64,000 nucleotides of DNA from Lachnospiraceae bacterium (GTDB taxonomy: Bacteria > Bacillota > Clostridia > Lachnospirales > Lachnospiraceae), in NCBI GenBank assembly GCA_045597325.1, contig JAZLJJ010000011.1, positions 14,426-78,425 on the forward strand. The letters run 5' to 3'. Positions 2,675-48,276 of the stretch are shown piece after piece. The notes under the pieces were generated by a model. That model searched no databases, had not been told where the DNA came from, and was given only the letters and a program-made list of their open reading frames with translations. Every line of letters starts with the position of its first letter. Position 1 is the stretch's first letter. The position numbers were made by a program, and so were the translations under genes.

Positions 2675-3574
2675 ATGAAAGAGTTTTTTAATGCGTTGTT
2701 TCAAGGTGAATTTGTCGATGCATTGAGCAGTTTTGCACCGCTTGTTGTGAAACTGGTGATTGTTCTGCTGCTGGCATGGATCGGCAGCAAACTGATTAAA
2801 TGGGTTCTCAGTCTGCTTGACAAAGCTTTGAATAAGAGCATCGAAAAGGGCATGGACAAGGGAATTGCAAAGTTCTTTAAGTCCAGCTGCAAGGTGCTTC
2901 TGTATATCGTTCTGTTTTTGATTGTTGTGGATCAGCTCGGAGTTCCGATGACATCGTTTGTTACGATTCTGGGTTCTGTCGGTCTTGCTGTCGGCCTTGC
3001 ATTACAGGGCAGCCTGTCCAATTTTGCCGGCGGTGTTCTGATTCTGCTGACACATCCGTTCCGGATCGGCGATTATATTGTTGCCGGCGGACAGGAAGGA
3101 ACCGTTACGGACATCAGCATCTGCTATACCAAACTGCTGACGGTTGACAATCGGACGGTGGTATTCCCGAATGGGACTCTTTCCAATTCCAATCTGGTAA
3201 ATGTGACCGCGGAGCCGTTCCGAAGAATTGATTTGGAAATCCCGGTATCGTACGACGATGACATTCGCGAGGTTCGTTCCATGCTCTTAGAGCTGTGCGA
3301 CCGCGATGCGAGAATTCTGAATGACGGCACAAATGTGAACGGAACGGTGTCTCCGACCGAGAGCCCGGCACCGAAGTTTGTTCGGGAAGTTTATGTCAAA
3401 GATTTCGGAGACAGTTCGATTACGATACTGTACCGTTTCTGGGTACGTCGGGAAGATTACTGGGGTGCCTATTTCGATATGATGGAATCTGTTCGGTATG
3501 CCATGAAGGAACGCGGTTTTACAATCCCGTTCAATCAGTTGGATGTTTCCATCAAAAATGATAAGCGGAACTGA
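2675..3574 (+). CDS. MscS-family mechanosensitive channel
   Basis: 299 aa. Three N-terminal TM helices, then the MscS beta-domain signature PFRIGDYI...GTVTDISICYTKLLTVDNRTVVFPNGTLSNSNLVN. Good RBS. Confidence 0.85.
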   Translation: MKEFFNALFQGEFVDALSSFAPLVVKLVIVLLLAWIGSKLIKWVLSLLDKALNKSIEKGMDKGIAKFFKSSCKVLLYIVLFLIVVDQLGVPMTSFVTILGSVGLAVGLALQGSLSNFAGGVLILLTHPFRIGDYIVAGGQEGTVTDISICYTKLLTVDNRTVVFPNGTLSNSNLVNVTAEPFRRIDLEIPVSYDDDIREVRSMLLELCDRDARILNDGTNVNGTVSPTESPAPKFVREVYVKDFGDSSITILYRFWVRREDYWGAYFDMMESVRYAMKERGFTIPFNQLDVSIKNDKRN

Positions 3575-3644: not shown

Positions 3645-5753
3645 ATGGCTGAAAAATTGACCGAGATTTTCGGAAAGGACGTATTTAACGAAACGGTTAT
3701 GGCAGAACGTCTTCCGAAGGAAACCTTTGAGGCATGGAAACATGCCATGAACAATCATGAAACACTCAGCAAGGAAGTTGCACAGGTGATTGCGGGATGC
3801 ATGAAGGACTGGGCTCTGGAACACGGAGCAACACACTATACGCACTGGTTCCAGCCGATGACCGGAATTACAGCCGAGAAGCATGATTCCTTTATTACTC
3901 CGGCACCGGCCGGTAAGGTAATGATGGAATTTTCCTATAAGGAGCTGATTAAGGGTGAGTCGGATGCATCTTCATTTCCGAGCGGCGGTCTGCGTGCCAC
4001 ATTTGAAGCACGCGGCTATACCGCATGGGATTTTACGTCGCCGGCCTTTTTGAGAGAGGATGCTGCGGGTGTTACCCTGTGCATTCCGACCGCATTTTGT
4101 TCCTATACGGGAGAAGCACTCGACATGAAAACACCGCTTCTTCGTTCTATGGAGGCGGTCAGCAAGCAGGCAGTCCGGATTCTTCACCTCTTCGGACACG
4201 ATGATGTGAAGCGCGTTGACTGTTCGGTCGGAGCCGAGCAGGAGTATTTCCTTGTGGATCATAACTCCTATATGAAACGGGAGGATTTGATTTTTACCGG
4301 ACGGACGCTGTTCGGTGCGAAACCGCCGAAGGGACAGGAAATGGATGACCACTATTTCGGAAGTCTGAAAGAGCGTGTTGCGTCCTTCATGAAAGAATTG
4401 AACAATGAGCTTTGGAAGCTGGGCATTTATGCCAAAACACAGCACAACGAAGCGGCACCGGCACAGCATGAGCTGGCACCGGTATATACAACGGCAAACA
4501 TTTCCACAGATCATAATCAGCTGATTATGGAGTGCATGAAGAAGGTTGCCAAGCGTCACGGGCTGGAATGCCTGCTGCACGAGAAGCCGTTTGCCGGAGT
4601 GAACGGTTCCGGTAAGCATAACAACTGGTCACTCGTGACCGATACCGGCAAGAATCTGCTGAATCCCGGTAAGACACCGAATGAAAATGTGCAGTTCCTG
4701 CTGTTCCTGACAGCGGTTTTGGAAGCTGTTGACAACCATGCCGATCTGCTTCGCATTGCCGCGGCCAACCCCGGAAACGATCAGCGTCTCGGAGCAAATG
4801 AGGCACCGCCCGCGATTATTTCCGTATTCCTCGGTGCACAGCTGGACGACGTGGTTACTCAGCTGATTGAAACCGGTGAAGCAAAACGTCTGAAAAAGGA
4901 AGGCCGCCTGTATACGGGCGTTTCCACGTTGCCCTCCATCGGACGGGATGCGACCGACAGAAACCGTACGTCGCCGTTTGCATTTACCGGAAACAAGTTC
5001 GAGTTCCGTTCCGTCGGTTCCTCGATGTCCATTGCCGATGCCAATACGACGCTCAATACGATTGTTGCCGAGGCACTGGAGCGGTTTGCCGATATTCTGG
5101 AACAGGCGGATGATTTTGAACAGTGCGTACATGACCTGATTAAGTCGTCCCTTGCGGACCACGAGAGAATCATTTTCAACGGAAACGGATATTCCGAAGA
5201 ATGGGTGAAGGAAGCGGAGCGCAGAGGCCTGCCGAACCTTCGTTCCATGGTGGATGCCATCCCGTCGCTTGTGACTCCGAAGGCAGTGGAAACTTTCGGT
5301 CATCAGGGAGTATTTACCGAGACCGAACTGATGAGCCGTGCGGAAATCGATTATGAAATTTACGCAAAGGCAATCAATATTGAAGCCAGAACCATGATTT
5401 CCATGGCAAGCTGCAAATATATTCCGTCCGTGATTCGGTTTACGACACGGCTGGCGGAATCGATTAATGCAATCAACGATGCGGTTCCGGAGGCGGATAA
5501 CAGTGTTCAGATTGAGCTTCTGATGTCCACATCCAAACTGCTGCGTGAGGCACAGGATGCGTTGAACCGGTTGAAATCACTGGACGAAGAAGCCGTTAAC
5601 AAGTCTCAGGGCAAGGAAATGGCGTTGTTCTTCCGCAATGAGATTGTACCGGCGATGGAAGCGTTGAGAACTCCGATTGACCGTTTGGAAATGCTGGTTG
5701 ACCGCGATTTGTGGCCGGTTCCGACGTATTCGGAATTGTTATTTGAAATCTGA
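3645..5753 (+). CDS. glnN: type III glutamine synthetase
   Basis: 702 aa, the GSIII size class. Motifs GVNGSGKHNNWS and NKFEFRSVGSS. GAGG RBS 7 nt upstream. Confidence 0.9.
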   Translation: MAEKLTEIFGKDVFNETVMAERLPKETFEAWKHAMNNHETLSKEVAQVIAGCMKDWALEHGATHYTHWFQPMTGITAEKHDSFITPAPAGKVMMEFSYKELIKGESDASSFPSGGLRATFEARGYTAWDFTSPAFLREDAAGVTLCIPTAFCSYTGEALDMKTPLLRSMEAVSKQAVRILHLFGHDDVKRVDCSVGAEQEYFLVDHNSYMKREDLIFTGRTLFGAKPPKGQEMDDHYFGSLKERVASFMKELNNELWKLGIYAKTQHNEAAPAQHELAPVYTTANISTDHNQLIMECMKKVAKRHGLECLLHEKPFAGVNGSGKHNNWSLVTDTGKNLLNPGKTPNENVQFLLFLTAVLEAVDNHADLLRIAAANPGNDQRLGANEAPPAIISVFLGAQLDDVVTQLIETGEAKRLKKEGRLYTGVSTLPSIGRDATDRNRTSPFAFTGNKFEFRSVGSSMSIADANTTLNTIVAEALERFADILEQADDFEQCVHDLIKSSLADHERIIFNGNGYSEEWVKEAERRGLPNLRSMVDAIPSLVTPKAVETFGHQGVFTETELMSRAEIDYEIYAKAINIEARTMISMASCKYIPSVIRFTTRLAESINAINDAVPEADNSVQIELLMSTSKLLREAQDALNRLKSLDEEAVNKSQGKEMALFFRNEIVPAMEALRTPIDRLEMLVDRDLWPVPTYSELLFEI

Positions 5754-10405: not shown

Positions 10406-10456
10406 GCATTGAAAACACCGAGGCCCGGGAAGGGCTTTGCGTGGGAGGACAAACAA

Positions 10457-11380
10457 ATGACAGCGTTATATCTCGCACCGATGGAGGAGGTTACAGGATA
10501 TCTGTTCCGTCGGGTGCTGTGGGAGCAATTCGGAGGGGTGAATCGGTTTTTCACCCCTTTTTTATCCCCGATTCAGGGCAGTACGTTTAAGACCCGTCAG
10601 GGCAAGGAAATCAATCCGGAAAATAATGCCGGAATGCCGGTGGTGCCGCAAATTCTGACCAACGATGCGGCGGGATTTCTGCATATGACCGAGCTGATGG
10701 CCGATTTGGGGTACCGGGAAGTGAATCTGAATCTCGGCTGCCCGTCCGGAACCGTCGTTCGAAAGGGGCGCGGCAGCGGATTTCTGCGGAATCCGGAGGG
10801 GCTTGAGCGGTTCTTCTCGGATGTCTTTTCCGGGAATCCGAAGCTTCCGATTTCCGTCAAAACAAGACTGGGCTTTTCGGATGCAGCGGAATGGCCGGCC
10901 CTTTTGGACATTTATAACCGGTATCCGATCAGCGAGCTGATTGTTCATGCACGGGTGCAGAAGGATTTGTACGGAAATGTGCCCAATTGGAAAATGACGG
11001 ACTACACCGTCAGGAATTCCAAGGCTCCGGTCTGCTATAACGGCGATGTCTGCACGAAGGAGGATTATGACCGTGTCGCAGAATCATTTCCGGACTTGAA
11101 GGCGGTAATGATCGGTCGCGGTGCGGTTGCCAATCCGGGAATTTTTCGCGAACTGACCGACGGCCGGGCGATGACGGTGGCAGAACAGCGGGAATTTCAC
11201 GACCGCCTGTACGAGGCCTATGTGAGAGAACTCGGTGCCCACAACACGTTATTTAAAATGAAGGAACTTTGGGGATTTATGGGCAGCCGGTTTCCGGAAG
11301 CGGACCGGGAGCGAAAAGAAATCCGCAAAGCGGAGACAACGGAAGCTTATTTGGCAGCGGCATACCGGCTGTTACGGTGA
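10457..11380 (+). CDS. tRNA-dihydrouridine synthase family protein
   Basis: Dus motifs LAPMEEVTG, NLNLGCPSGTVVRKGRGSGFL and VHARV. ATG 10457 chosen because GGGAGG lies 8 nt upstream (the ORF is open from 10409). Confidence 0.85.
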   Translation: MTALYLAPMEEVTGYLFRRVLWEQFGGVNRFFTPFLSPIQGSTFKTRQGKEINPENNAGMPVVPQILTNDAAGFLHMTELMADLGYREVNLNLGCPSGTVVRKGRGSGFLRNPEGLERFFSDVFSGNPKLPISVKTRLGFSDAAEWPALLDIYNRYPISELIVHARVQKDLYGNVPNWKMTDYTVRNSKAPVCYNGDVCTKEDYDRVAESFPDLKAVMIGRGAVANPGIFRELTDGRAMTVAEQREFHDRLYEAYVRELGAHNTLFKMKELWGFMGSRFPEADRERKEIRKAETTEAYLAAAYRLLR

Positions 11381-11385
11381 AATTA

Positions 11386-11412
11386 TTAGCACTCAGACTA
11401 AATGAGTGCTAA
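11386..11412 (+). promoter_or_regulatory. CIRCE operator (HrcA binding site), perfect inverted repeat
   Basis: TTAGCACTC-AGACTAAAT-GAGTGCTAA is an exact match to the CIRCE consensus TTAGCACTC-N9-GAGTGCTAA. It is followed by TTTTT, so it can also form a terminator-like hairpin after dus. Confidence 0.85.
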
Positions 11413-11418
11413 TTTTTG

Positions 11419-11447
11419 TTGACAAAGAGAAAGTACGGGGGTATACT
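11419..11447 (+). promoter_or_regulatory. sigma-A type promoter of htpG
   Basis: TTGACA (11419-11424), 17-nt spacer, TATACT (11442-11447). It lies about 80 nt upstream of the htpG ATG. Confidence 0.65.
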
Positions 11448-11525
11448 GTCTCTTGTGCCGGATTTGACAGACGGCCGAAAGAAACAGATTGCACGGTGCA
11501 GGGCACCGAAACGGAGGTAGTTACT

Positions 11526-13547
11526 ATGATAGAACAAGGAAGCTTATCCATTAATTCGGACAATATATTTCCGATTATCAAGAAATGGTTATATTCCGAT
11601 CACGATATTTTTGTAAGAGAGCTGGTTTCCAACGGATGCGACGCGATTACCAAGCTGAAGAAGCTGTCACTGATCGGCGAAGCACAGTTGCCGGATGACA
11701 ACGAGTGGAAGATTACCGTCAGAATTAATCCGGAAGAGAAAACGCTGACGTTTATCGATAACGGTATCGGTATGACGGCGGAGGAAGTCAGGGAATACAT
11801 CAACCAGATTGCATTTTCCGGCGCAACCGATTTCCTGAGCAAATACAAGGACAAGGCCAGCGAGGACCAGATTATCGGTCATTTCGGTCTCGGATTTTAC
11901 AGCGCATTTATGGTTGCTCACAAGGTAACCATCGAGACATTGTCGTACAAGGATGGAGCAAAGGCGGTTTATTGGGAATCCGAAGAAGGTATGGAATTCG
12001 AAATGGATGAGTCCGACCGGACAGAGCGCGGAACGGAGATTACGCTGTATCTGAACGAGGACAGCTATGAATTTTCCAATGAGTACCGAATCAGGGAAAT
12101 CCTGAATAAGTACTGTTCCTTTATGCCGGTTCCGATTTTCTTTGAGGACGAAACCAAGCCGGCGGAAGAACCGAAGGAAGAAGTTGTCGATGCGGAAGTC
12201 AGCGAAGACGGCACCGAAGCAAAGCCGGTTGAGAAGAACGCACCGAAGCCGATAAATGAAATCAATCCGCTGTTTTTGCATACACCGAGTGATTGCACGG
12301 AGGAGGAATATAAGACCTTTTACCGCGATACGTTCCATGATTACAAAGAGCCGCTGTTCTGGATTCATTTGAACATGGATTATCCGTTCAACCTGAAGGG
12401 AATTCTGTATTTCCCCAAGATTAATACGGAATACGACAGCCTGGACGGAACGATTAAGCTGTACAACAATCAGGTCTTTATTGCGGACAATATCAAAGAG
12501 GTAATTCCGGAATTTTTGATGCTGTTAAAGGGTGTCATCGACTGCCCCGATATCCCGCTCAACGTTTCCCGAAGCGCTTTGCAGAATGACGGTTTCGTGA
12601 AGAAAATCAGCGATTACATTTCCAAGAAGGTTGCCGACAAGCTGTCCGGTATGTTCAAGACCGACCGGGAAGCGTATGAAAAATGCTGGGATGACATTTG
12701 CCCGTTTATCAAATACGGCTGCCTGAAGGATTCGAAGTTCCGCGACAAGATGAAGGACTTCATCATTTATAAAAATCTGAGCGGCGAATATCTGACACTG
12801 CCCGATTATGTGGCTGCAGCCAAGGAAACGGCAGAACCGGAGAAGGCAACCGAGGCAACCGAAAATGCCGAAACCGCTGCCAATGCCGAAACCGCTGCAA
12901 ACGGCGAAACAACCGAAAATCAGGATGCGACATCGGAAAAGAAGGAGCCGGAGAAGACGACGGTTTACTATGTTACCGATGAGAAGCAGCAGAGCCAGTA
13001 TATCAATATGTTCAAAGAAAACGGTATGGATGCGCTGATTATGACGCATCGGATTGACCAGCCGTTTATTACGCAGTTGGAGCAGGACAACGATACGGTT
13101 GCATTTAAGAGAATCGATGCCGATGTTACGGATACGATGAAGGAAGCAACCGACGGAGAGGAACTGAAGGCCATGGCAGAATCGCTGACCGAGCTGTTCC
13201 GCAGAAAGCTGAATGATTCCGAACTGGATGTGAAGCTGGAAAAACTGAAGAACAGCAATGTGTCTGCAATGATTACGCTGTCGGAAGAAAGCCGCCGTAT
13301 GCAGGATATGATGGCAATGTACGGAATGGCACCGGGCAGCTTCGGAAAACAGGATCAGACGCTGGTGCTGAATGCCAATAACAGTCTCGTACAGTATGTC
13401 AGTGAGCATGCCGACGATGACAATACGGGACTTCTGTGCGAGCAGATTTACGATTTGGCACGCTTGGCACACGGCCCGCTCGAACCCGATGACATGACGA
13501 AGTTCATGGAACGAAGCAACCGTCTGATGGGATTGATGATTCAGTAA
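11526..13547 (+). CDS. htpG: molecular chaperone HtpG (Hsp90)
   Basis: N-terminal GHKL motif IFVRELVSNGCDAI and IGHFGLGFYSAFMVA. Acidic repeat linker. GGAGG RBS before ATG 11526 (the ORF is open from 11406). Confidence 0.95.
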   Translation: MIEQGSLSINSDNIFPIIKKWLYSDHDIFVRELVSNGCDAITKLKKLSLIGEAQLPDDNEWKITVRINPEEKTLTFIDNGIGMTAEEVREYINQIAFSGATDFLSKYKDKASEDQIIGHFGLGFYSAFMVAHKVTIETLSYKDGAKAVYWESEEGMEFEMDESDRTERGTEITLYLNEDSYEFSNEYRIREILNKYCSFMPVPIFFEDETKPAEEPKEEVVDAEVSEDGTEAKPVEKNAPKPINEINPLFLHTPSDCTEEEYKTFYRDTFHDYKEPLFWIHLNMDYPFNLKGILYFPKINTEYDSLDGTIKLYNNQVFIADNIKEVIPEFLMLLKGVIDCPDIPLNVSRSALQNDGFVKKISDYISKKVADKLSGMFKTDREAYEKCWDDICPFIKYGCLKDSKFRDKMKDFIIYKNLSGEYLTLPDYVAAAKETAEPEKATEATENAETAANAETAANGETTENQDATSEKKEPEKTTVYYVTDEKQQSQYINMFKENGMDALIMTHRIDQPFITQLEQDNDTVAFKRIDADVTDTMKEATDGEELKAMAESLTELFRRKLNDSELDVKLEKLKNSNVSAMITLSEESRRMQDMMAMYGMAPGSFGKQDQTLVLNANNSLVQYVSEHADDDNTGLLCEQIYDLARLAHGPLEPDDMTKFMERSNRLMGLMIQ

Positions 13548-13682
13548 CGAAAGAATTTGCCGGACCGTTCGGCAACAACCGAATACCCGGAACTGCGAAA
13601 CAGCAGATTCCGGGTTGCCGGTGAAGGTACGGGCTCTGATTCGGGGCGGAAAAAATGATAGCAGATTTTTTCAAAATGACAC

Positions 13683-13711
13683 TTGACAATTCCGTTTCTT
13701 TGTTGCATAAT
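13683..13711 (+). promoter_or_regulatory. promoter of the tRNA cluster
   Basis: TTGACA (13683-13688), 17 nt, CATAAT (13706-13711). It lies about 25 nt upstream of the first tRNA. Confidence 0.55.
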
Positions 13712-13733
13712 ATCAAAGCACGTTAAAATTTTT

Positions 13734-13807
13734 CGAGGCATGGCTCAGTTTGGTAGAGCGCTGCGTTCGGGACGCAGAGGTCGTGGGTTCGAATCCCGTT
13801 GCCTCGA
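13734..13807 (+). tRNA. tRNA-Pro (anticodon CGG)
   Basis: Hand-folded cloverleaf. Acceptor CGAGGCA/TGCCTCG, D arm GCTC-AGTTTGGTA-GAGC, anticodon arm CTGCG-TTCGGGA-CGCAG, T arm GTGGG-TTCGAAT-CCCGT. Confidence 0.9.
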
Positions 13808-13820
13808 TTCATCCGTGCTT

Positions 13821-13893
13821 GCTGGAATAGCTCAGCCGGTAGAGCACTTCACTCGTAATGAAGGGGTCGTCAGTTCGAATCTGATTTCCAGCT
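13821..13893 (+). tRNA. tRNA-Thr (anticodon CGT)
   Basis: Acceptor GCTGGAA/TTCCAGC, anticodon arm CTTCA-CTCGTAA-TGAAG, T loop TTCGAAT. Confidence 0.9.
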
Positions 13894-13948
13894 TTTATTT
13901 TGCCCAAGCGGACAGAAGGAAAGCAGGAAACAGCATAAGTTAATACTT

Positions 13949-14022
13949 CGAGGCGTGGCTCAGTTTGGTAGAGCACCGTGTTAGGGACGCGGGGGTCGCG
14001 TGTTCAAGTCACGTCGCCTCGA
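13949..14022 (+). tRNA. tRNA-Pro-like with anticodon AGG (A34)
   Basis: Acceptor CGAGGCG/CGCCTCG (like the first Pro tRNA), anticodon arm CCGTG-TTAGGGA-CGCGG, T arm GCGTG-TTCAAGT-CACGT. The loop reads U33-A34-G35-G36-G37. Confidence 0.8.
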
Positions 14023-14026
14023 TACG

Positions 14027-14056
14027 CACCGTATTCATAGAATACGGTGTTTTTTT
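14027..14056 (+). terminator. rho-independent terminator of the tRNA cluster
   Basis: CACCGTATTC-ATA-GAATACGGTG followed by T7. Confidence 0.85.
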
Positions 14057-14220
14057 ATCTCATAGGTAAGTTCGTCCTATGAGATAAAAAAAGCTCCGCG
14101 GGGATGCACACGCCTGTGCAGAGGAAAAATGTCGCTTCGCGGGGATGCACACGTTTTTGGCCGGGGAAATGGTCGCTTCGCGACGCAAAAGCGGCGCAGC
14201 GTGTCATAAGCAACATGCAT
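14057..14220 (+). repeat. structured ~130-nt intergenic element, copy 1 (diverged, with an internal partial duplication)
   Basis: Starts ATCTCATAGGTAAGTTCGTCCTATGAGATAAAAAAAGCTCCGCGGGGATGCACACGCCTGTGCAGAGGAAAAATGTCGCTTCGCG. The GGGGATGCACACG...GTCGCTTCGCGAC module then repeats, and the 3' hairpin is degenerate. Confidence 0.85.
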
Positions 14221-14387
14221 TCATATACGACAGGCTGTTTTACAATTAACAAAAATGTAACGGTTTTGAATGTTGTTTTGTAACAATCGTTTGATATAAT
14301 GAAACCATAGGAACGAAAATACAATGACAGTATCAACCGACGCATGAGAAAACGCAGAGAATAAAAAGCAATGAGGAGGTAAGGAGT

Positions 14388-15923
14388 ATGATAAAAGATA
14401 TCCTGATAATTGCGGGAATAGCCCTGCTTTTGGCAGCAGTGATTGTGATTACTTTTTTGGCATATCGATATAAAGCGGTACTGCAGACGTTATCGGAAGC
14501 AGAAACGGATTTGGACAAGGCAGAGGTACGGGCCAATCAGGCCGAGGATTTGTATCGGAATTGCAACCGTACCAGGGAAATGACCGAGCAGGAACTGGAA
14601 ACCCTGAAACAGCAGTACGGGAAAGTCAGCAAACTGGCTTATACCGATATGAATTCCGATTTACCGAACAGCCGCATGCTGACGGAGGCATTTGACAAAG
14701 CCATCCGGACGGTCGGACCGTCGACGGGCGCCATCGGTGTTGCCATGTTTGAATTCCGGAATCCGAACGAATCCGGTGTCGGATTTTTCAGCAGAAGTCA
14801 TGCGGAGCTGAAGCAGGAAATGATTCAGCGCCTGAAGAGCGCGCAAAATGAAGCGGACGATCTTCTGGTCAGCATGACCGACAACGCATTTGCCCTGATG
14901 ACGGAGCATGTGTCCATGCGGAAGGATTACGAGGGAAAAATCGATAAATTGTTTAAAATGCTGACGCTGCCGTTAATGAGCAACGGAGTGGAGATTCTGC
15001 CGGTAGTGTACGGAGCGGTGACAATCGCACCGACAGACGGCAATTCCATGCAGTTAGTGATGATGAATCTTGGTCTGGCAATGGATGAGGCCATGACTCA
15101 GAAGGACAGTACATACTGTTTTTATAAGCCCGACATGGCCAAAAAGGTGATGGATGAAATGGAGCGCCAGGGTGCGGTAACGGAGGCTATCCGAAACGAC
15201 AAACTCGAATATTTGCTGACACCGCAGGTCAATCTGGCAAGCGGCCGCAGCGACATTTTCGCACTGACTCCGATGCTTGGCAACGGTGTCAACATTGTCG
15301 GTTCGGAATTGCTGAAAATGCTCGATAACAGCGGAATGTCCATTGTCGTATATGAAAATATGCTTCGCAAGGTTTGTGAGTATTTGCAGCAGTACACCGA
15401 ACAGGGCTATACGGACATTTGCATTACCGTTCCCGTAACGGACCGGATGTTCCAAAACAGAGAGTTTATCAAGACCACATATGACGTTCTTCAGAATTTG
15501 GAAATCGATATGCAGCGCGTTCGATTTGAACTGACGGCCTGCGCGATTACGAAGAATCCGAAGGAAGCAGCGGACAAGATGAGAAAAATGACCAACTTCG
15601 GCGTGCGGTTTGTCCTGAAAACGGAGGGGATTCCGGAGGTTCCGGCGTGGTTGCTGATGAACATGCCGATTGCCGCATGGAAACTGACGAAGGTACGGCA
15701 GGACGGTTTGGATTCGGATGAATTTTCCCGGTTACTGTCGGTTTATGTCAATACGGCACATTCGTTCCGGGCGGATATCATTTGCTCCGGTGTGGATGAC
15801 CCGATTCAGGAAGAACTGCTCCGCGGATGCGGCATGGATTATGCCGAAGGACGCTTGTACGGTGGAGCAATGACCGAGGAACTGATCGGCGGATATCTGG
15901 CAGCACGCGTAAAAACGATGTAA
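14388..15923 (+). CDS. membrane-anchored protein with degenerate GGDEF and degenerate EAL domains
   Basis: 511 aa with an N-terminal TM helix and coiled coil. GGDEF-like region YTDMNSDLPNSRML...SMTDNAFALM (the GGDEF motif is lost). EAL-like region LLTPQVNLASGRSDIFALTP (EAL becomes FAL) ... YAEGRLYG. Confidence 0.7.
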   Translation: MIKDILIIAGIALLLAAVIVITFLAYRYKAVLQTLSEAETDLDKAEVRANQAEDLYRNCNRTREMTEQELETLKQQYGKVSKLAYTDMNSDLPNSRMLTEAFDKAIRTVGPSTGAIGVAMFEFRNPNESGVGFFSRSHAELKQEMIQRLKSAQNEADDLLVSMTDNAFALMTEHVSMRKDYEGKIDKLFKMLTLPLMSNGVEILPVVYGAVTIAPTDGNSMQLVMMNLGLAMDEAMTQKDSTYCFYKPDMAKKVMDEMERQGAVTEAIRNDKLEYLLTPQVNLASGRSDIFALTPMLGNGVNIVGSELLKMLDNSGMSIVVYENMLRKVCEYLQQYTEQGYTDICITVPVTDRMFQNREFIKTTYDVLQNLEIDMQRVRFELTACAITKNPKEAADKMRKMTNFGVRFVLKTEGIPEVPAWLLMNMPIAAWKLTKVRQDGLDSDEFSRLLSVYVNTAHSFRADIICSGVDDPIQEELLRGCGMDYAEGRLYGGAMTEELIGGYLAARVKTM

Positions 15924-16070
15924 AAAAGAAGAGGCTCATTTTGTGACATATGCACGGTTTTTGAACCCATGAAGAAAGGAAACGGCGTAGAGATTTTGTA
16001 CAAATCAAACCAAATCGGAGGCGTCGATTCTGAGACCGGAAGTCTTGCATTTGCATAGGGAAACTGATAC

Positions 16071-16111
16071 AATCAGAGTTACCGAAAAATCTGCGGTGAC
16101 TCTGATTTTTT
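16071..16111 (+). terminator. rho-independent terminator
   Basis: ATCAGAGTTACCG...CGGTGACTCTGAT followed by T7. Confidence 0.8.
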
Positions 16112-16113
16112 TC

Positions 16114-16242
16114 ATCTCATAGGAACGTTCGTCCTATGAGATAAAGAACGCTCCGCGAGGATGCACACGCCTGTGCAGAGGAAAAATGTCGCTTCGCGAC
16201 ACACAGGCGGCGCGAGCATATCGTAAGCGATATGCTTTGTTC
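16114..16242 (+). repeat. structured ~130-nt intergenic element, copy 2
   Basis: ATCTCATAGGAACGTTCGTCCTATGAGATAAAGAACGCTCCGCGAGGATGCACACGCCTGTGCAGAGGAAAAATGTCGCTTCGCGACACACAGGCGGCGCGAGCATATCGTAAGCGATATGCTTTGTTC. Confidence 0.95.
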
Positions 16243-16329
16243 GAAACTTCATTGAATCGATTCATGAAACTCATACAGAACGAATATTGAAGAAAGGTGT
16301 CGGCAGGCAATGCCGATGGTGTGTTTACT

Positions 16330-17301
16330 ATGGAGAAATTTCATGAATTTTGCGAAACGCTGAGAACCGGGACGGAAGAGACAATGGGAACCGGGTATGA
16401 GGTGTCGCTTCGAACGGTGAAGAAGAATAACAATGTGACTTTGACGGGACTGATGATTCGGGAGGATGGGGCCAATGTCATTCCGACCATTTATCTGGAT
16501 CCGTATTATGAGCAGTATCTGGAGGGAAGATTGCTGACGGGAATCGAAGAAGAGATTCTTGATATTTATCGAAAGAACCGTGTGCCCCGGCAGACAGAAC
16601 TGAGTCTGGATTACGAGTCCGTAAAGGAGCGGATTTTCTTTTTGATGATGAATCGCGGCCTGAATCACGAAATGTTAGAATCCATGCCGCATGTGGAAAT
16701 CGGTGATTTGGCGGTTGGATTTCAGTGGATTGTTGATTTGGAGGAACGGCAAATCGGTGCTGTGAGGATTACCGAAGATCAGACGGCCATGTGGAATGTG
16801 ACAACGGAAGAACTGATTCGGGATGCACTGAACAATACGGTGCGTTCCCTGCCGCCGGTGCTGAAAAGCATCGAGGATGTACTGCGGGAAATTCTGATTG
16901 GGGATTCGGGACAGGACGGCAATAAGGAAAATGCGGAGAAACGGGACGAAATCATTCGATTATTGGGAGAAGAGACGGATCGAAAGACATTTCCGATGTA
17001 TGTCCTGTCCAACGAAACCGCACGGCTCGGGGCATCGTCTCTGCTGTCGCTTCCGTTTCTGAATCGGTTCCGCGATACCATCGGAGAGGATTTTTGGATT
17101 CTTCCGTCCAGCATTCATGAGGTCATTCTGGTTCCGGAATCGGAAGTGGAAGACCGGGAAAAACTGAAACAGATGGTACGGGAAATCAACGAGACCCAGG
17201 TGCCGATTCAGGAATTTTTGTCGGATGAGGTGTATCTGTACAGTGAATTTGAGAAACTGATACCCGATTCGTTCCGGACAAGACTGCTGCAGGCCGGTTG
17301 A
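16330..17301 (+). CDS. hypothetical protein, DUF5688-like
   Basis: The ORF is open from 16297 and the first ATG is at 16330. The N-terminus ...KKNNNVTLTGLMIREDGANVIPTIYLDPYYEQY resembles DUF5688 proteins of Lachnospiraceae (recall only). Start uncertain and RBS weak. Confidence 0.5.
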   Translation: MEKFHEFCETLRTGTEETMGTGYEVSLRTVKKNNNVTLTGLMIREDGANVIPTIYLDPYYEQYLEGRLLTGIEEEILDIYRKNRVPRQTELSLDYESVKERIFFLMMNRGLNHEMLESMPHVEIGDLAVGFQWIVDLEERQIGAVRITEDQTAMWNVTTEELIRDALNNTVRSLPPVLKSIEDVLREILIGDSGQDGNKENAEKRDEIIRLLGEETDRKTFPMYVLSNETARLGASSLLSLPFLNRFRDTIGEDFWILPSSIHEVILVPESEVEDREKLKQMVREINETQVPIQEFLSDEVYLYSEFEKLIPDSFRTRLLQAG

Positions 17302-17420
17302 TGCTGTTTGAGCAAGACTGCTGCAGGCAGCTGACGTTGTTTGAGCAAGACTACTGCAGGCCGGTTGACGCTGTTCGGACAAGACTGCTGCAGGCCGGCT
17401 GACACTGTTCGGGCAAAATG
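17281..17420. repeat. tandem repeat, 33-34 bp x 4, starting inside the last codons of the upstream CDS
   Basis: CAAGACTGCTGCAGG recurs at 17289, 17323, 17356 and 17390. Unit 1 holds the TGA stop (17299-17301). Confidence 0.9.
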
Positions 17421-17478
17421 TATTGAGAAGTATCGGAAAAAGAAAATGCCGTACCCGTTCGGGTACGGCAATCGGCAA

Positions 17479-17551
17479 TGCGCCTGAAGGGATTCGAACC
17501 CCCGACCATTGGCTTCGGAAGCCACTACTCTATCCACTGAGCTACAAGCGC
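17479..17551 (-). tRNA. tRNA-Arg (anticodon CCG)
   Basis: The reverse complement folds as GCGCTTG-TA-GCTC-AGTGGATA-GAGT-A-GTGGC-TTCCGAA-GCCAA-TGGTC-GGGGG-TTCGAAT-CCCTT-CAGGCGC-A. A hairpin GCCGTACCCG-TTC-GGGTACGGC plus T-run lies downstream on the - strand (17445-17470). Confidence 0.85.
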
Positions 17552-17625
17552 AGATGCATTTGACGAACGAAAAAGCGGAGTTTCGGAACCCGGAACAGGC
17601 GGCTCTCGTTCTGTCACTGCCCCGT

Positions 17626-17654
17626 ATGATACCACATTTGCCGAATAAAGTAAA
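17626..17654 (-). promoter_or_regulatory. candidate promoter for tRNA-Arg
   Basis: On the - strand: TTTACT, 17 nt, TATCAT with TG at the extended -10 position. Confidence 0.45.
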
Positions 17655-17710
17655 GCATATCTTGAAAGAAAACGAGAGAACGGATATCTTACGACCGCGG
17701 CGGTTGAAAC

Positions 17711-17808
17711 GTGAGAGAACGGAAGCCGGGGAGAGAACGGAAGCAGGCGGGAACGGAAGCAGGCGGGAACGGAAGCCGGGAGAGAACGGAAACAGAGCAA
17801 GAACGAAC
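17711..17808. repeat. short tandem repeats of GAACGGAAGC(A/C)GG, ~16-19 bp x 5
   Basis: gagagaacggaagccgggga / gagaacggaagcaggcgg / gaacggaagcaggcgg / gaacggaagccggga / gagaacggaaacagagc. Confidence 0.85.
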
Positions 17809-17960
17809 TCATGGCGGGAATGACAGCAGAAAATCAACACACTCGGGAAAGAAATATCATATCGGACCGCAGAAACATCATATCATACATTGTTTTTCCG
17901 TCCGGCAAACGGTACAGTGGAAGAAAAATGTTCGCTGAAGCGGACAGATGGGAGAAGGTT

Positions 17961-18914
17961 ATGATTCGATTCGGTATTATGGGATGCGGTTCGATTGCGA
18001 GAAGTTTTTGCGACGGAGCGTCACATGCAAATGATGCAGAGGTCGTTGCGGTAGCCAGCAAGAGCCTGGAGCGTGCGAAGGCACTGGCGGACGAAAAGGG
18101 AATCCGTCGGGCATACGGAGACTACGAAGAACTGTTGAACGACCCGGAAGTGGATGCGGTATATATAGCGACGACAACCAATTATCATTATGAGAATGTA
18201 AAACAGTGTCTGGCGGCTGGGAAGCATGTTCTGTGCGAAAAAGCCATGGTGGAAACCGAGGCGCGTGCGAGAGAACTGTTTGCCCTGGCAGCGGAAAAGA
18301 AACTGTTTCTGATGGAAGGCATGTGGTCCCGATTCCAGCCGAAAACCAAAAAGGTAAGGGAATGGGTGACCGGCGGTGCCATCGGAGACGTTGTCTGCAT
18401 GCAGGCCACTATCGGATTCGGACCGAAGCGGGACATGACCAACCGATTCTTTAATCCGGATCTCGGCGGCGGCGCATGGTATGATATCGGCGTGTATCTG
18501 GCGGATTTGCTGCCGTACTTCGTCGATCAGGAGCTGGTGGATATTTCCTGCGATATGACCTGCGCGGATTCCGGCGTCGATGCGGTTTTGAATATCAACA
18601 TGAAACTGACGTCCTGTCTTGCCAACGGTCAGGCGAGTCTGTATTGCAGAATGCCGGAGACCTGTTATATATACGGAACCGACGGAATGATTGTCATTCC
18701 CGGAATTCATTTTGGAGGAGAAGCGATTCGCTATGATGCTCAGGGAGCGGAGGCAGAACGCTTTGAGGATCCGGAGCCGTACCGGTTCTGTTATGAAATC
18801 AATGAAGTTACGGAATGCATTACGGCGGGACGGCTGACCAGTGAAACGGACAGCCCGGAAATGACCTATGCGACAAGCCGTCTGTATGACCGTTTTTGCC
18901 CAATCAAAAAGTAA
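17961..18914 (+). CDS. Gfo/Idh/MocA family oxidoreductase
   Basis: Rossmann N-terminus MIRFGIMGCGSIARSF and VLCEKAM motif. ATG 17961 has a GGAGAAGG RBS (the ORF is open from 17811). Confidence 0.85.
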   Translation: MIRFGIMGCGSIARSFCDGASHANDAEVVAVASKSLERAKALADEKGIRRAYGDYEELLNDPEVDAVYIATTTNYHYENVKQCLAAGKHVLCEKAMVETEARARELFALAAEKKLFLMEGMWSRFQPKTKKVREWVTGGAIGDVVCMQATIGFGPKRDMTNRFFNPDLGGGAWYDIGVYLADLLPYFVDQELVDISCDMTCADSGVDAVLNINMKLTSCLANGQASLYCRMPETCYIYGTDGMIVIPGIHFGGEAIRYDAQGAEAERFEDPEPYRFCYEINEVTECITAGRLTSETDSPEMTYATSRLYDRFCPIKK

Positions 18915-28607: not shown

Positions 28608-28638
28608 CCGGGAACCGCATGTTCCCGGTCCGGTCTTT
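28608..28638 (+). terminator. terminator-like hairpin after ftsH
   Basis: CCGGGAAC-CGCAT-GTTCCCGG followed by TCCGGTCTTT (a weak T-tract). Confidence 0.5.
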
Positions 28639-28768
28639 ATCTCATAGGAAAGTTCGTCCTATGAGATAAAAAAACGCTTCGCGAGGATGCACACGCCTGT
28701 GCAGAGGAAAAATGTCGCTTCGCGACGCACAGGCGGCGCGAGCATATCGCAAGCGATATGCTTTGTTC
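28639..28768 (+). repeat. structured ~130-nt intergenic element, copy 3
   Basis: Near-identical to copies 4-6, from ATCTCATAGGAAAGTTCGTCCTATGAGAT to GAGCATATCGCAAGCGATATGCTTTGTTC. Confidence 0.95.
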
Positions 28769-35149: not shown

Positions 35150-35193
35150 AGAAGTCCTTCGGGTCACCTCCGGGTGATTCGGAGGGCTTTTTT
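35150..35193 (+). terminator. rho-independent terminator after crh
   Basis: CCTCCG-GGTGATT-CGGAGG inside a longer GC-rich hairpin, followed by CTTTTTT. Confidence 0.65.
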
Positions 35194-35370
35194 ATCTCAT
35201 AGGAAAGCTCGTCCTATGAGATAAAAAAACGCTCCGCGAGGATGCACACGTCTGTGCAGAGGAAAAATGTCGCTTCGCGACGCACAGGCGGCGCGAGCAT
35301 ATCGCAAGCGATATGCTTTGTTCTGTCATAGGAAAGTTCGTCCTATGAGATAAAAAAACATTCCGCGAGG
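35194..35370 (+). repeat. structured ~130-nt intergenic element, copy 4, plus a second partial unit (hairpin + A-run + CATTCCGCGAGG)
   Basis: A full unit is followed by TGTCATAGGAAAGTTCGTCCTATGAGATAAAAAAACATTCCGCGAGG. Confidence 0.95.
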
Positions 35371-42445: not shown

Positions 42446-42476
42446 AGACCTGTCGCTCTCCGCGGCAGGTCTTTTT
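42446..42476 (+). terminator. rho-independent terminator
   Basis: AGACCTG-TCGCTCTCCGCGG-CAGGTCT followed by T5. Confidence 0.8.
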
Positions 42477-42625
42477 ATCTCATAGGAAAGTTCGTCCTAT
42501 GAGATAAAAAACGCTCCGCGAGGATGCACACGCCTGTGCAGAGGAAAAATGTCGCTTCGCGACGCACAGGCGGCGCGAGCATATCGCAAGCGATATGCTT
42601 TGTTCTGACATGAGATATAGGACAA
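42477..42625 (+). repeat. structured ~130-nt intergenic element, copy 5 (plus a decayed second hairpin)
   Basis: A full unit 42477-42606, then TGACATGAGATATAGGACAAAACG. Confidence 0.95.
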
Positions 42626-48067: not shown

Positions 48068-48097
48068 CCCGGCTTCGATGAGGAGCCGGGATTTTTT
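48068..48097 (+). terminator. rho-independent terminator after deoD
   Basis: CCCGGCT-TCGATGAGG-AGCCGGG-A-T6. Confidence 0.85.
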
Positions 48098-48276
48098 ATC
48101 TCACAGGAAAGTTCGTCCTGTGAGATAAAAAACGCTCCGCGAGAATGCACACGCCTGTGCAGAGGAAAGATGTCGCTTCGCGACGCACAGGCGGCGCGAG
48201 CATATCGCAAGCGATATGCTTTGTTCTCTCACAGGAAAGTTCGTCCTGTGAGAAAAAAACGCTCCGCGAGGATGCA
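48098..48276 (+). repeat. structured ~130-nt intergenic element, copy 6, plus a second hairpin unit; both hairpins carry compensatory changes
   Basis: CTCACAGGAAAGTTCGTCCTGTGAG (twice) where the other copies have CTCATAGGAAAGTTCGTCCTATGAG. Confidence 0.95.

Follow-up and report, generated by a model that had tools for sequence, protein, structure and literature searches.

Anticodons that start with A are, according to reviews and a 2026 study, essentially absent in prokaryotes besides Arg(ACG) and sporadic Leu(AAG) and Thr(AGU), and the literature treats this absence as an unexplained near-universal constraint. Our literature search for a bacterial Pro(AGG) clade found nothing beyond engineered mutants and general censuses. 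The locus studied here lies in a 64,000-nucleotide stretch of DNA from a Lachnospiraceae bacterium (hereafter, the window) and raises the question of whether a proline tRNA with the anticodon AGG can be a working gene and, if so, whether its A34 is used as such or converted to inosine.

An earlier, sequence-only reading had placed a tRNA-Pro with an A34 anticodon and the loop TTAGGGA at 13949-14022, and suggested that a tRNA finder be run to confirm the anticodon. ARAGORN called four tRNAs in the window, including Pro(cgg), Thr(cgt) and Pro(agg), all three on the + strand (bounds 13733-13808, 13821-13893 and 13948-14023, respectively). The Rfam model RF00005 spans 13949-14022 end to end with 56.8 bits (E 4.3e-12, gathering score 29). 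Both the coordinates and the description were thus correct, and the genomically encoded A34 is read directly from the sequence. The features of the locus are as follows:

13683..13711, + strand: promoter-like site of the tRNA operon (TTGACA, 17-nt spacer, CATAAT; 11 of 12 consensus matches; pattern match only)
13734..13807, + strand: tRNA-Pro(CGG), operon gene 1 (ARAGORN; Rfam tRNA model 65.7 bits)
13821..13893, + strand: tRNA-Thr(CGT), operon gene 2 (ARAGORN; Rfam tRNA model 69.1 bits)
13949..14022, + strand: tRNA-Pro(AGG) (ARAGORN; Rfam tRNA model 56.8 bits; loop UUAGGGA, C1-G72, A73, G37)
13983, + strand: A34, the anticodon wobble base of tRNA-Pro(AGG) (position counted from the sequence)
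14026..14057, + strand: intrinsic terminator of the tRNA operon (11-bp stem, 3-nt loop, seven-T run)

The 74-nt tRNA-Pro(AGG) has no non-canonical stem pair in the Rfam alignment. Its acceptor stem is CGAGGCG/CGCCTCG, with C1-G72 and the discriminator A73, followed by the D arm GCTC-AGTTTGGTA-GAGC, the anticodon stem CCGTG/CGCGG enclosing U32 U33 A34 G35 G36 G37 A38, and the T arm GCGTG-TTCAAGT-CACGT; CCA is encoded neither here nor in the two operon partners. Studies of E. coli ProRS have defined G35, G36, A73 and G72 as its identity elements, while G37 serves TrmD, and all five are present in the sequence of tRNA-Pro(AGG).

Separately, an Rfam search of 13000-18000 under default (gathering) filters recovered both neighbouring tRNAs and missed Pro(AGG). 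The miss is a filter loss and no sign of a low score or a pseudogene, and it means that filtered cmscan runs can under-report tRNAs of this type.

The three genes, Pro(CGG)-Thr(CGT)-Pro(AGG), look like one predicted transcription unit, flanked by htpG and a GGDEF-EAL gene. Directly upstream of the operon, the window encodes a dihydrouridine synthase (Dus) and an HtpG of 713 aa (10409-13547), and the htpG-tRNA operon linkage is kept in several related genomes (L007, L049, L085, L111, L319 and L358). At the other end, a copy of a repeated, terminator-associated element of about 90 nt starts at the T-tract of the operon terminator (14050-14141, continuing to about 14200) and is 92-97% identical to further copies at 16107-16198, 28636-28724, 35188-35279, 42472-42561 and 48092-48182. 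The copy at 14050 has an extra partial internal duplication, with GCTYCGCGGGGATGCACACG present twice.

To see how far the gene extends beyond this genome, one genome per prokaryotic species was scanned with the Pro D-arm plus the loop YTAGGGA as query. At least 119 genome stretches matched, in which ARAGORN called 124 tRNA-Pro(agg) genes; four loci were set aside (two alphaproteobacterial non-Pro calls, one cut by a contig end and one decayed copy, L004). Pro(AGG) with the same D-arm is thereby found in at least 115 species-representative genomes, mostly Lachnospiraceae and Anaerotignum, with 'Eubacterium sp.' and unclassified Clostridia as other carriers by record title among the matches listed. 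The listed carriers come from the guts of humans, mice, ruminants, horses and rabbits, and cultured ones include Anaerotignum lactatifermentans, A. propionicum, Diplocloster agilis, Lientehia hominis, Fusibacillus kribbianus and Clostridium sp. ASF356. Four contexts recur: Pro(CGG)-Thr(CGT)-Pro(AGG), Pro(CGG)-Pro(AGG), Asn(GTT)-Pro(AGG)-Arg(TCT) and tandem AGG-AGG, the tandem duplicates being found in Anaerotignum-type loci. The earlier suggestion of a kinship with Firmicutes that have extra A34 tRNAs is supported.

Two further observations were made on these loci. An A4-C69 acceptor mismatch (CGGAGCG...CGCCCCG) is kept in more than 20 species in the Asn-Pro(AGG)-Arg(TCT) context (loci including L017, L025, L038, L043, L055, L057, L062, L069, L073 and L090), while sister genes have G4-C69. 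Lachnospiraceae-type Pro(AGG) also appears under unrelated labels, namely a Bacteroides fragilis MAG (L039, identical to the commonest mouse/ruminant type), a Lactobacillaceae MAG (L010), a Ruthenibacterium bin (L006) and a Christensenellaceae MAG (L041), which suggests mis-binning or chimeric scaffolds, with horizontal transfer less likely.

Among 50 distinct Pro(AGG) sequences, 99.3% of stem cells pair on the cloverleaf and 13 of the 21 stem pairs show compensatory change on both sides. None of 500 shuffles reached the observed covariation, and sliding the pairing partners dropped pairing to 35-50%. The anticodon loop is invariant in all 50, as is A34, which the search pattern fixed. The exact 74-nt window tRNA occurs in loci of six other species; in several of these (L049, L085 and L111) it sits in the htpG-linked operon while the coding DNA, htpG included, is only about 70-79% identical. 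It is also present in two isolate assemblies of about 3 Mb (X7 and X8), with no variant letters across 13949-14022. By these comparisons, the structure of tRNA-Pro(AGG) is kept by purifying selection across species.

These results bear on two simple ways of dismissing the gene. In the first, A34 would be a sequencing or assembly error in the window. Nothing specific speaks for this beyond the genome being probably metagenome-assembled, and the identical 74 nt in six independent assemblies and in both isolates leave it a negligible probability. In the second, Pro(AGG) would be a non-functional or near-neutral mutant duplicate of Pro(CGG) or Pro(GGG) that drifted to A34, as the sequence-only reading had also considered. 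Such point switching of the anticodon does occur, given that AGG is close to neighbouring CGG genes and intermixed with them in the tree described below; one decayed copy exists (L004), and the Rfam score of 56.8 bits is below the neighbours' 65.7 and 69.1. However, a drifting copy is contradicted by conservation in at least 115 species with compensatory stem changes, by full identity of the tRNA where coding DNA has diverged, by the invariant loop and the duplication of the gene in some lineages, by the lack of any G34 revertant in 124 listed matches (below), and by an operon equipped with a promoter-like site and a terminator. We consider a mutant duplicate very improbable. Clade-wide conservation and the exact tRNA in independent assemblies together exclude, for practical purposes, both a sequencing error and a decaying copy.

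Where did the gene come from? In the window, Pro(AGG) and Pro(CGG) differ at 13 of 74 positions, with an identical D arm and a single different pair in the acceptor stem (that these two arms are close had been noticed from the sequence alone); across shared loci the two differ at 2 to 13 positions. With position 34 masked, AGG and CGG genes are intermixed in the tree, with an estimated 11 changes between them, at least five of which are forced by well-supported branches, and one AGG gene is identical outside position 34 to the CGG gene of another species. Either AGG arose repeatedly from CGG duplicates, or tandem paralogues were homogenised while selection held their anticodons apart; a 73-column tree is too weak to separate repeated origin from gene conversion between tandem paralogues. 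The earlier reading saw A34 as a replacement of the usual U34 or G34; in these comparisons it is Pro(CGG) genes that the AGG genes resemble most and among which they fall. An origin from Pro(GGG) by G34A is not supported: there is no GGG in this backbone and AGG clusters with CGG, in a tree that is itself weak.

Position 34 was addressed in metagenomes, with the backbone TGGCTCAG...GGTCGC and either A or G permitted at that position. Among the matches listed (120 stretches) there were 124 A and no G, in a sample formed by the first rows rather than a random draw, in which contigs of different samples may be one species; the scan sees this backbone only, and a GGG tRNA with another backbone would escape it. 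With any base permitted in viral contigs, the matches listed had 42 C, 22 T and no A or G, and a looser backbone found neither GGG nor AGG in viral contigs. A-to-G is the easiest mutation, yet G34 is wholly absent across about 70 distinct AGG sequences, which argues that A itself, and not merely a purine, would be needed at position 34. An encoded A34 in the listed matches is thus accompanied by no G34 isoacceptor of the same backbone, as is typical of I34 tRNAs, and this strict retention of A over G suits an inosine precursor at least as well as an adenosine that stays unmodified.

As a side observation, Pro(CGG) of the same backbone is frequent in IMG/VR contigs (42 of 64 listed matches), many of them at contig ends (L236-L295), which fits the use of the gene as a prophage attachment site.

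Taken together, these results show a genuine, conserved gene under structural constraint in which A34 is fixed, and Pro(AGG) is almost certainly a functional tRNA-Pro. The mechanism that we favour goes further. tRNA-Pro(AGG) would come last in the transcript of the Pro(CGG)-Thr(CGT)-Pro(AGG) operon. ProRS would charge it by recognising G35, G36, A73 and C1-G72, and it would read the pyrimidine-ending codons CCU and CCC, a task that falls to tRNA-Pro(GGG) in other bacteria. Purifying selection keeps the encoded A34 across a large clade of gut bacteria (Lachnospiraceae, Anaerotignum and their relatives), and this A34 would stay unmodified. The anticodon AGG pairs with CCN, a four-codon box in which two G:C pairs permit two-out-of-three reading, and these two strong pairs would carry decoding; CCU and CCC would be read with similar efficiency, CCA and CCG weakly, as was measured for AGG tRNAs of Salmonella and E. 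coli. As a whole, with operon transcription, charging, CCU/CCC reading and a selected but unmodified A34 all included, we regard this statement as evenly balanced between right and wrong.

The expectation of an unmodified A34 comes from precedent. In E. coli, the proline tRNA produced by the proL G34A mutation, with anticodon AGG, is unmodified and present at wild-type levels (bioRxiv 10.64898/2026.05.15.725136), and an orthogonal tRNA(AGG) contains no inosine, reads CCU and CCC similarly and reads all proline codons (PMC11066159). A Salmonella AGG mutant (Chen et al. 2002, as cited in PMC11066159) left CCU and CCC undiscriminated without inosine. The relaxed TadA of S. pyogenes edits UAMG (M = A or C) and skips UAGG, within a streptococcal editing consensus of YUAMGRA (PMC11472039), and no I34 was detected in the natural A34 Thr and Ser tRNAs of O. 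oeni (PMC8072771).

The main competing explanation is that the TadA of this lineage tolerates G35 and converts A34 to inosine, so that IGG would read CCU, CCC and CCA, and the operon's Pro(CGG) would read CCG. This would extend to proline the two-tRNA strategy of ICG and CCG used for arginine, and would constitute the first natural bacterial I34 proline tRNA. We give it somewhat less than an even chance, and the evidence on both sides deserves detail.

The loop of Pro(AGG) keeps U33, G36, R37 and A38, and its sole departure from known TadA substrates is G35; UUAGGGA fits the streptococcal consensus except at position 35. In the structure of S. aureus TadA with RNA, C35 is solvent-exposed and makes no base-specific contact, while the strictness of the E. 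coli enzyme for C35 has been attributed to R26 and R152 (PMC10586758). A search for a deaminase motif in the 64-kb window found none. Two Lachnospiraceae MAG loci, however, carry a bona fide TadA gene about 2 kb from Pro(AGG) (L033, about 3840-4440, + strand; L048, about 2940-3520, + strand; E 8.7e-45 against PDB 2B3J), a linkage that is probably coincidental. In a hand alignment, this TadA keeps the residues that read U33 and G36 (S150, F156 and R161), and shows His34 and Leu160 at the positions of the C35-restricting arginines R26 and R152 of E. coli and Asn116 at that of D108; its C-terminus is extended by an acidic tail of some 35 residues. These residues would neither rule out nor demonstrate G35 acceptance. 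Against inosine, acceptance of G35 is not known for any bacterial TadA characterised to date, and the loop departs from known substrates precisely here; position 35 is A or C even in the sites edited by the relaxed S. pyogenes enzyme, and all AGG-anticodon tRNAs so far assayed in bacteria were reported to be unmodified.

Assembled metatranscriptome contigs of 20 sequencing runs (recorded as RNA or of unknown kind) were compared with the operon and with two other Pro(AGG) types. All assignable Pro(AGG) contigs have A34, and no edited contig was seen. Most extend into flanking DNA, and the contigs with the gene in RNA runs (for example, depth 37 in X82 and an exact match in X27) may be precursors or DNA. 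As a control, four of the same runs were examined on an Arg(ACG)-Pro(UGG) array, where the Arg A34 also reads as A (depths 515, 70 and about 52 in three runs). To our knowledge, A34 of Arg(ACG) is edited wherever it has been studied. The unedited control therefore indicates that these contigs are precursors or DNA and blind to I34, and we did not count them against inosine. For expression of Pro(AGG), the signs are the consensus promoter and terminator patterns and these contigs from RNA runs, which may be DNA or precursors.

Codon usage offers another view of decoding. The 657 proline codons in 42 long ORFs of the window are 70% CCG, 16% CCC, 8% CCU and 6% CCA, from which Pro(CGG) would serve the bulk and AGG about a quarter (CCU + CCC = 24%). 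The Anaerotignum/ASF356 group of carrier loci, of lower GC and with tandem AGG in several cases, uses 32% CCU, 33% CCC, 16% CCA and 19% CCG, and CCU plus CCC make up 65% of proline codons in Anaerotignum-type loci. The Arg box of the same group, read by ICG, is close to its Pro box (36/33/10/20), while in its Ala and Thr boxes the A-ending codon dominates (38% and 46%). By tRNA type, carrier loci use 4-16% CCA and 8-13% CGA, with GCA and ACA common, and this parallel scarcity of CCA and CGA speaks for inosine. Codon use is thus co-adapted to a CCY-reading tRNA, and usage does not distinguish inosine from adenosine. An excess of CCC over CCU was considered as a sign of inosine and rejected, given that unmodified AGG tRNAs read CCU and CCC equally (PMC11066159).

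If IGG and CGG covered the box, Pro(UGG) could be dispensed with. In the two 3-Mb isolate assemblies that carry the operon, no contig reached 80% likeness to a Pro(UGG) reference, in a test of about 60-70% sensitivity (62-70% of diverse Pro(UGG) genes reach 80% likeness to the reference), and at that level nothing but the operon itself matched G9-type Pro genes. The lack of a match to two Pro(UGG)-type references, at that sensitivity, would raise the chance of Pro(UGG) absence modestly.

Several of these points weigh against an A34 that stays unmodified. The hosts of the unmodified AGG tRNAs have an E. coli-type TadA with R26 and R152, where a carrier TadA has His and Leu. The unmodified O. 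oeni tRNAs lack G36, and Pro(AGG) has it. The tested clade-wide bacterial case, another A34 tRNA, Leu(AAG), is fully I34. In carrier loci, A-ending codons are scarce in the Pro box, as they are in the Arg box read by ICG but not in the Ala and Thr boxes. The repeated pairing of Pro(CGG) and Pro(AGG) in one operon also favours inosine. The fuller proposal, in which TadA of Lachnospiraceae and Anaerotignum has widened to G35 and makes IGG, and some lineages decode the Pro box with IGG and CGG and without UGG, is one that we hold only tentatively, as a minority possibility.

Whichever of the two applies, a proline A34 tRNA that is fixed, constrained and sometimes duplicated in a major gut family provides a natural system with cultured members. 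It poses two questions: whether an ordinary bacterium can tolerate an unmodified A34 in the long term, or whether TadA has been broadened repeatedly; either outcome bears on the co-evolution of wobble decoding and codon usage. If TadA makes IGG, gut bacteria that are abundant and can be cultured would have taken an independent step toward a multi-substrate I34 system like that of eukaryotes. A G35-tolerant TadA, if true, would be of interest for TadA-based base editors, and coverage of the Pro box by IGG and CGG without UGG would parallel ICG and CCG for arginine.

Four known systems resemble Pro(AGG). The eukaryotic tRNA-Pro(AGG), whose anticodon ADAT2/3 changes to IGG, shares the encoded anticodon, the proposed CCU/CCC/CCA decoding and the exclusion of G34. 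ADAT2/3, a heterodimer, binds the tRNA as a whole regardless of the loop sequence, whereas bacterial TadA is a homodimer that reads the loop. Thr(AGU) of Mycoplasma capricolum and Thr(AGU)/Ser(AGA) of O. oeni are, like Pro(AGG), natural bacterial four-box A34 tRNAs, with an unmodified A34 and several codons read (PMC11066159, PMC8072771). They differ in having U36 or A36 in place of the G36 that TadA requires, and Mycoplasma has a minimal tRNA set while Pro(AGG) carriers have ordinary-sized genomes.

The proL G34A mutants of Salmonella and E. coli, and the orthogonal tRNA(AGG), share both the anticodon AGG and G37. As reported (Chen et al. 2002, in PMC11066159; Raval et al. preprint), laboratory AGG tRNAs are charged, stable and non-toxic, read CCU and CCC alike together with other proline codons, and contain no inosine. 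Those are laboratory mutants in hosts with a C35-strict TadA, whereas Pro(AGG) is natural, ancient and selected in the genomes of at least 115 wild species. Finally, Leu(AAG) of Lactobacillales (Oenococcus oeni, Streptococcus pyogenes and oral streptococci) is, like Pro(AGG), an A34 tRNA of Firmicutes that serves a four-codon box other than that of Arg; it is fixed clade-wide, takes the place of a G34 isoacceptor and goes with shifted synonymous codon use (PMC11472039, PMC13249217, bioRxiv 10.64898/2026.05.15.725136). It has A35 and is fully converted to I34 by a relaxed TadA, while Pro(AGG) has G35, serves proline and belongs to Lachnospirales. In nature, the closest precedent for Pro(AGG) is thus Leu(AAG) of Lactobacillales; in function, the proL G34A mutant comes nearest.
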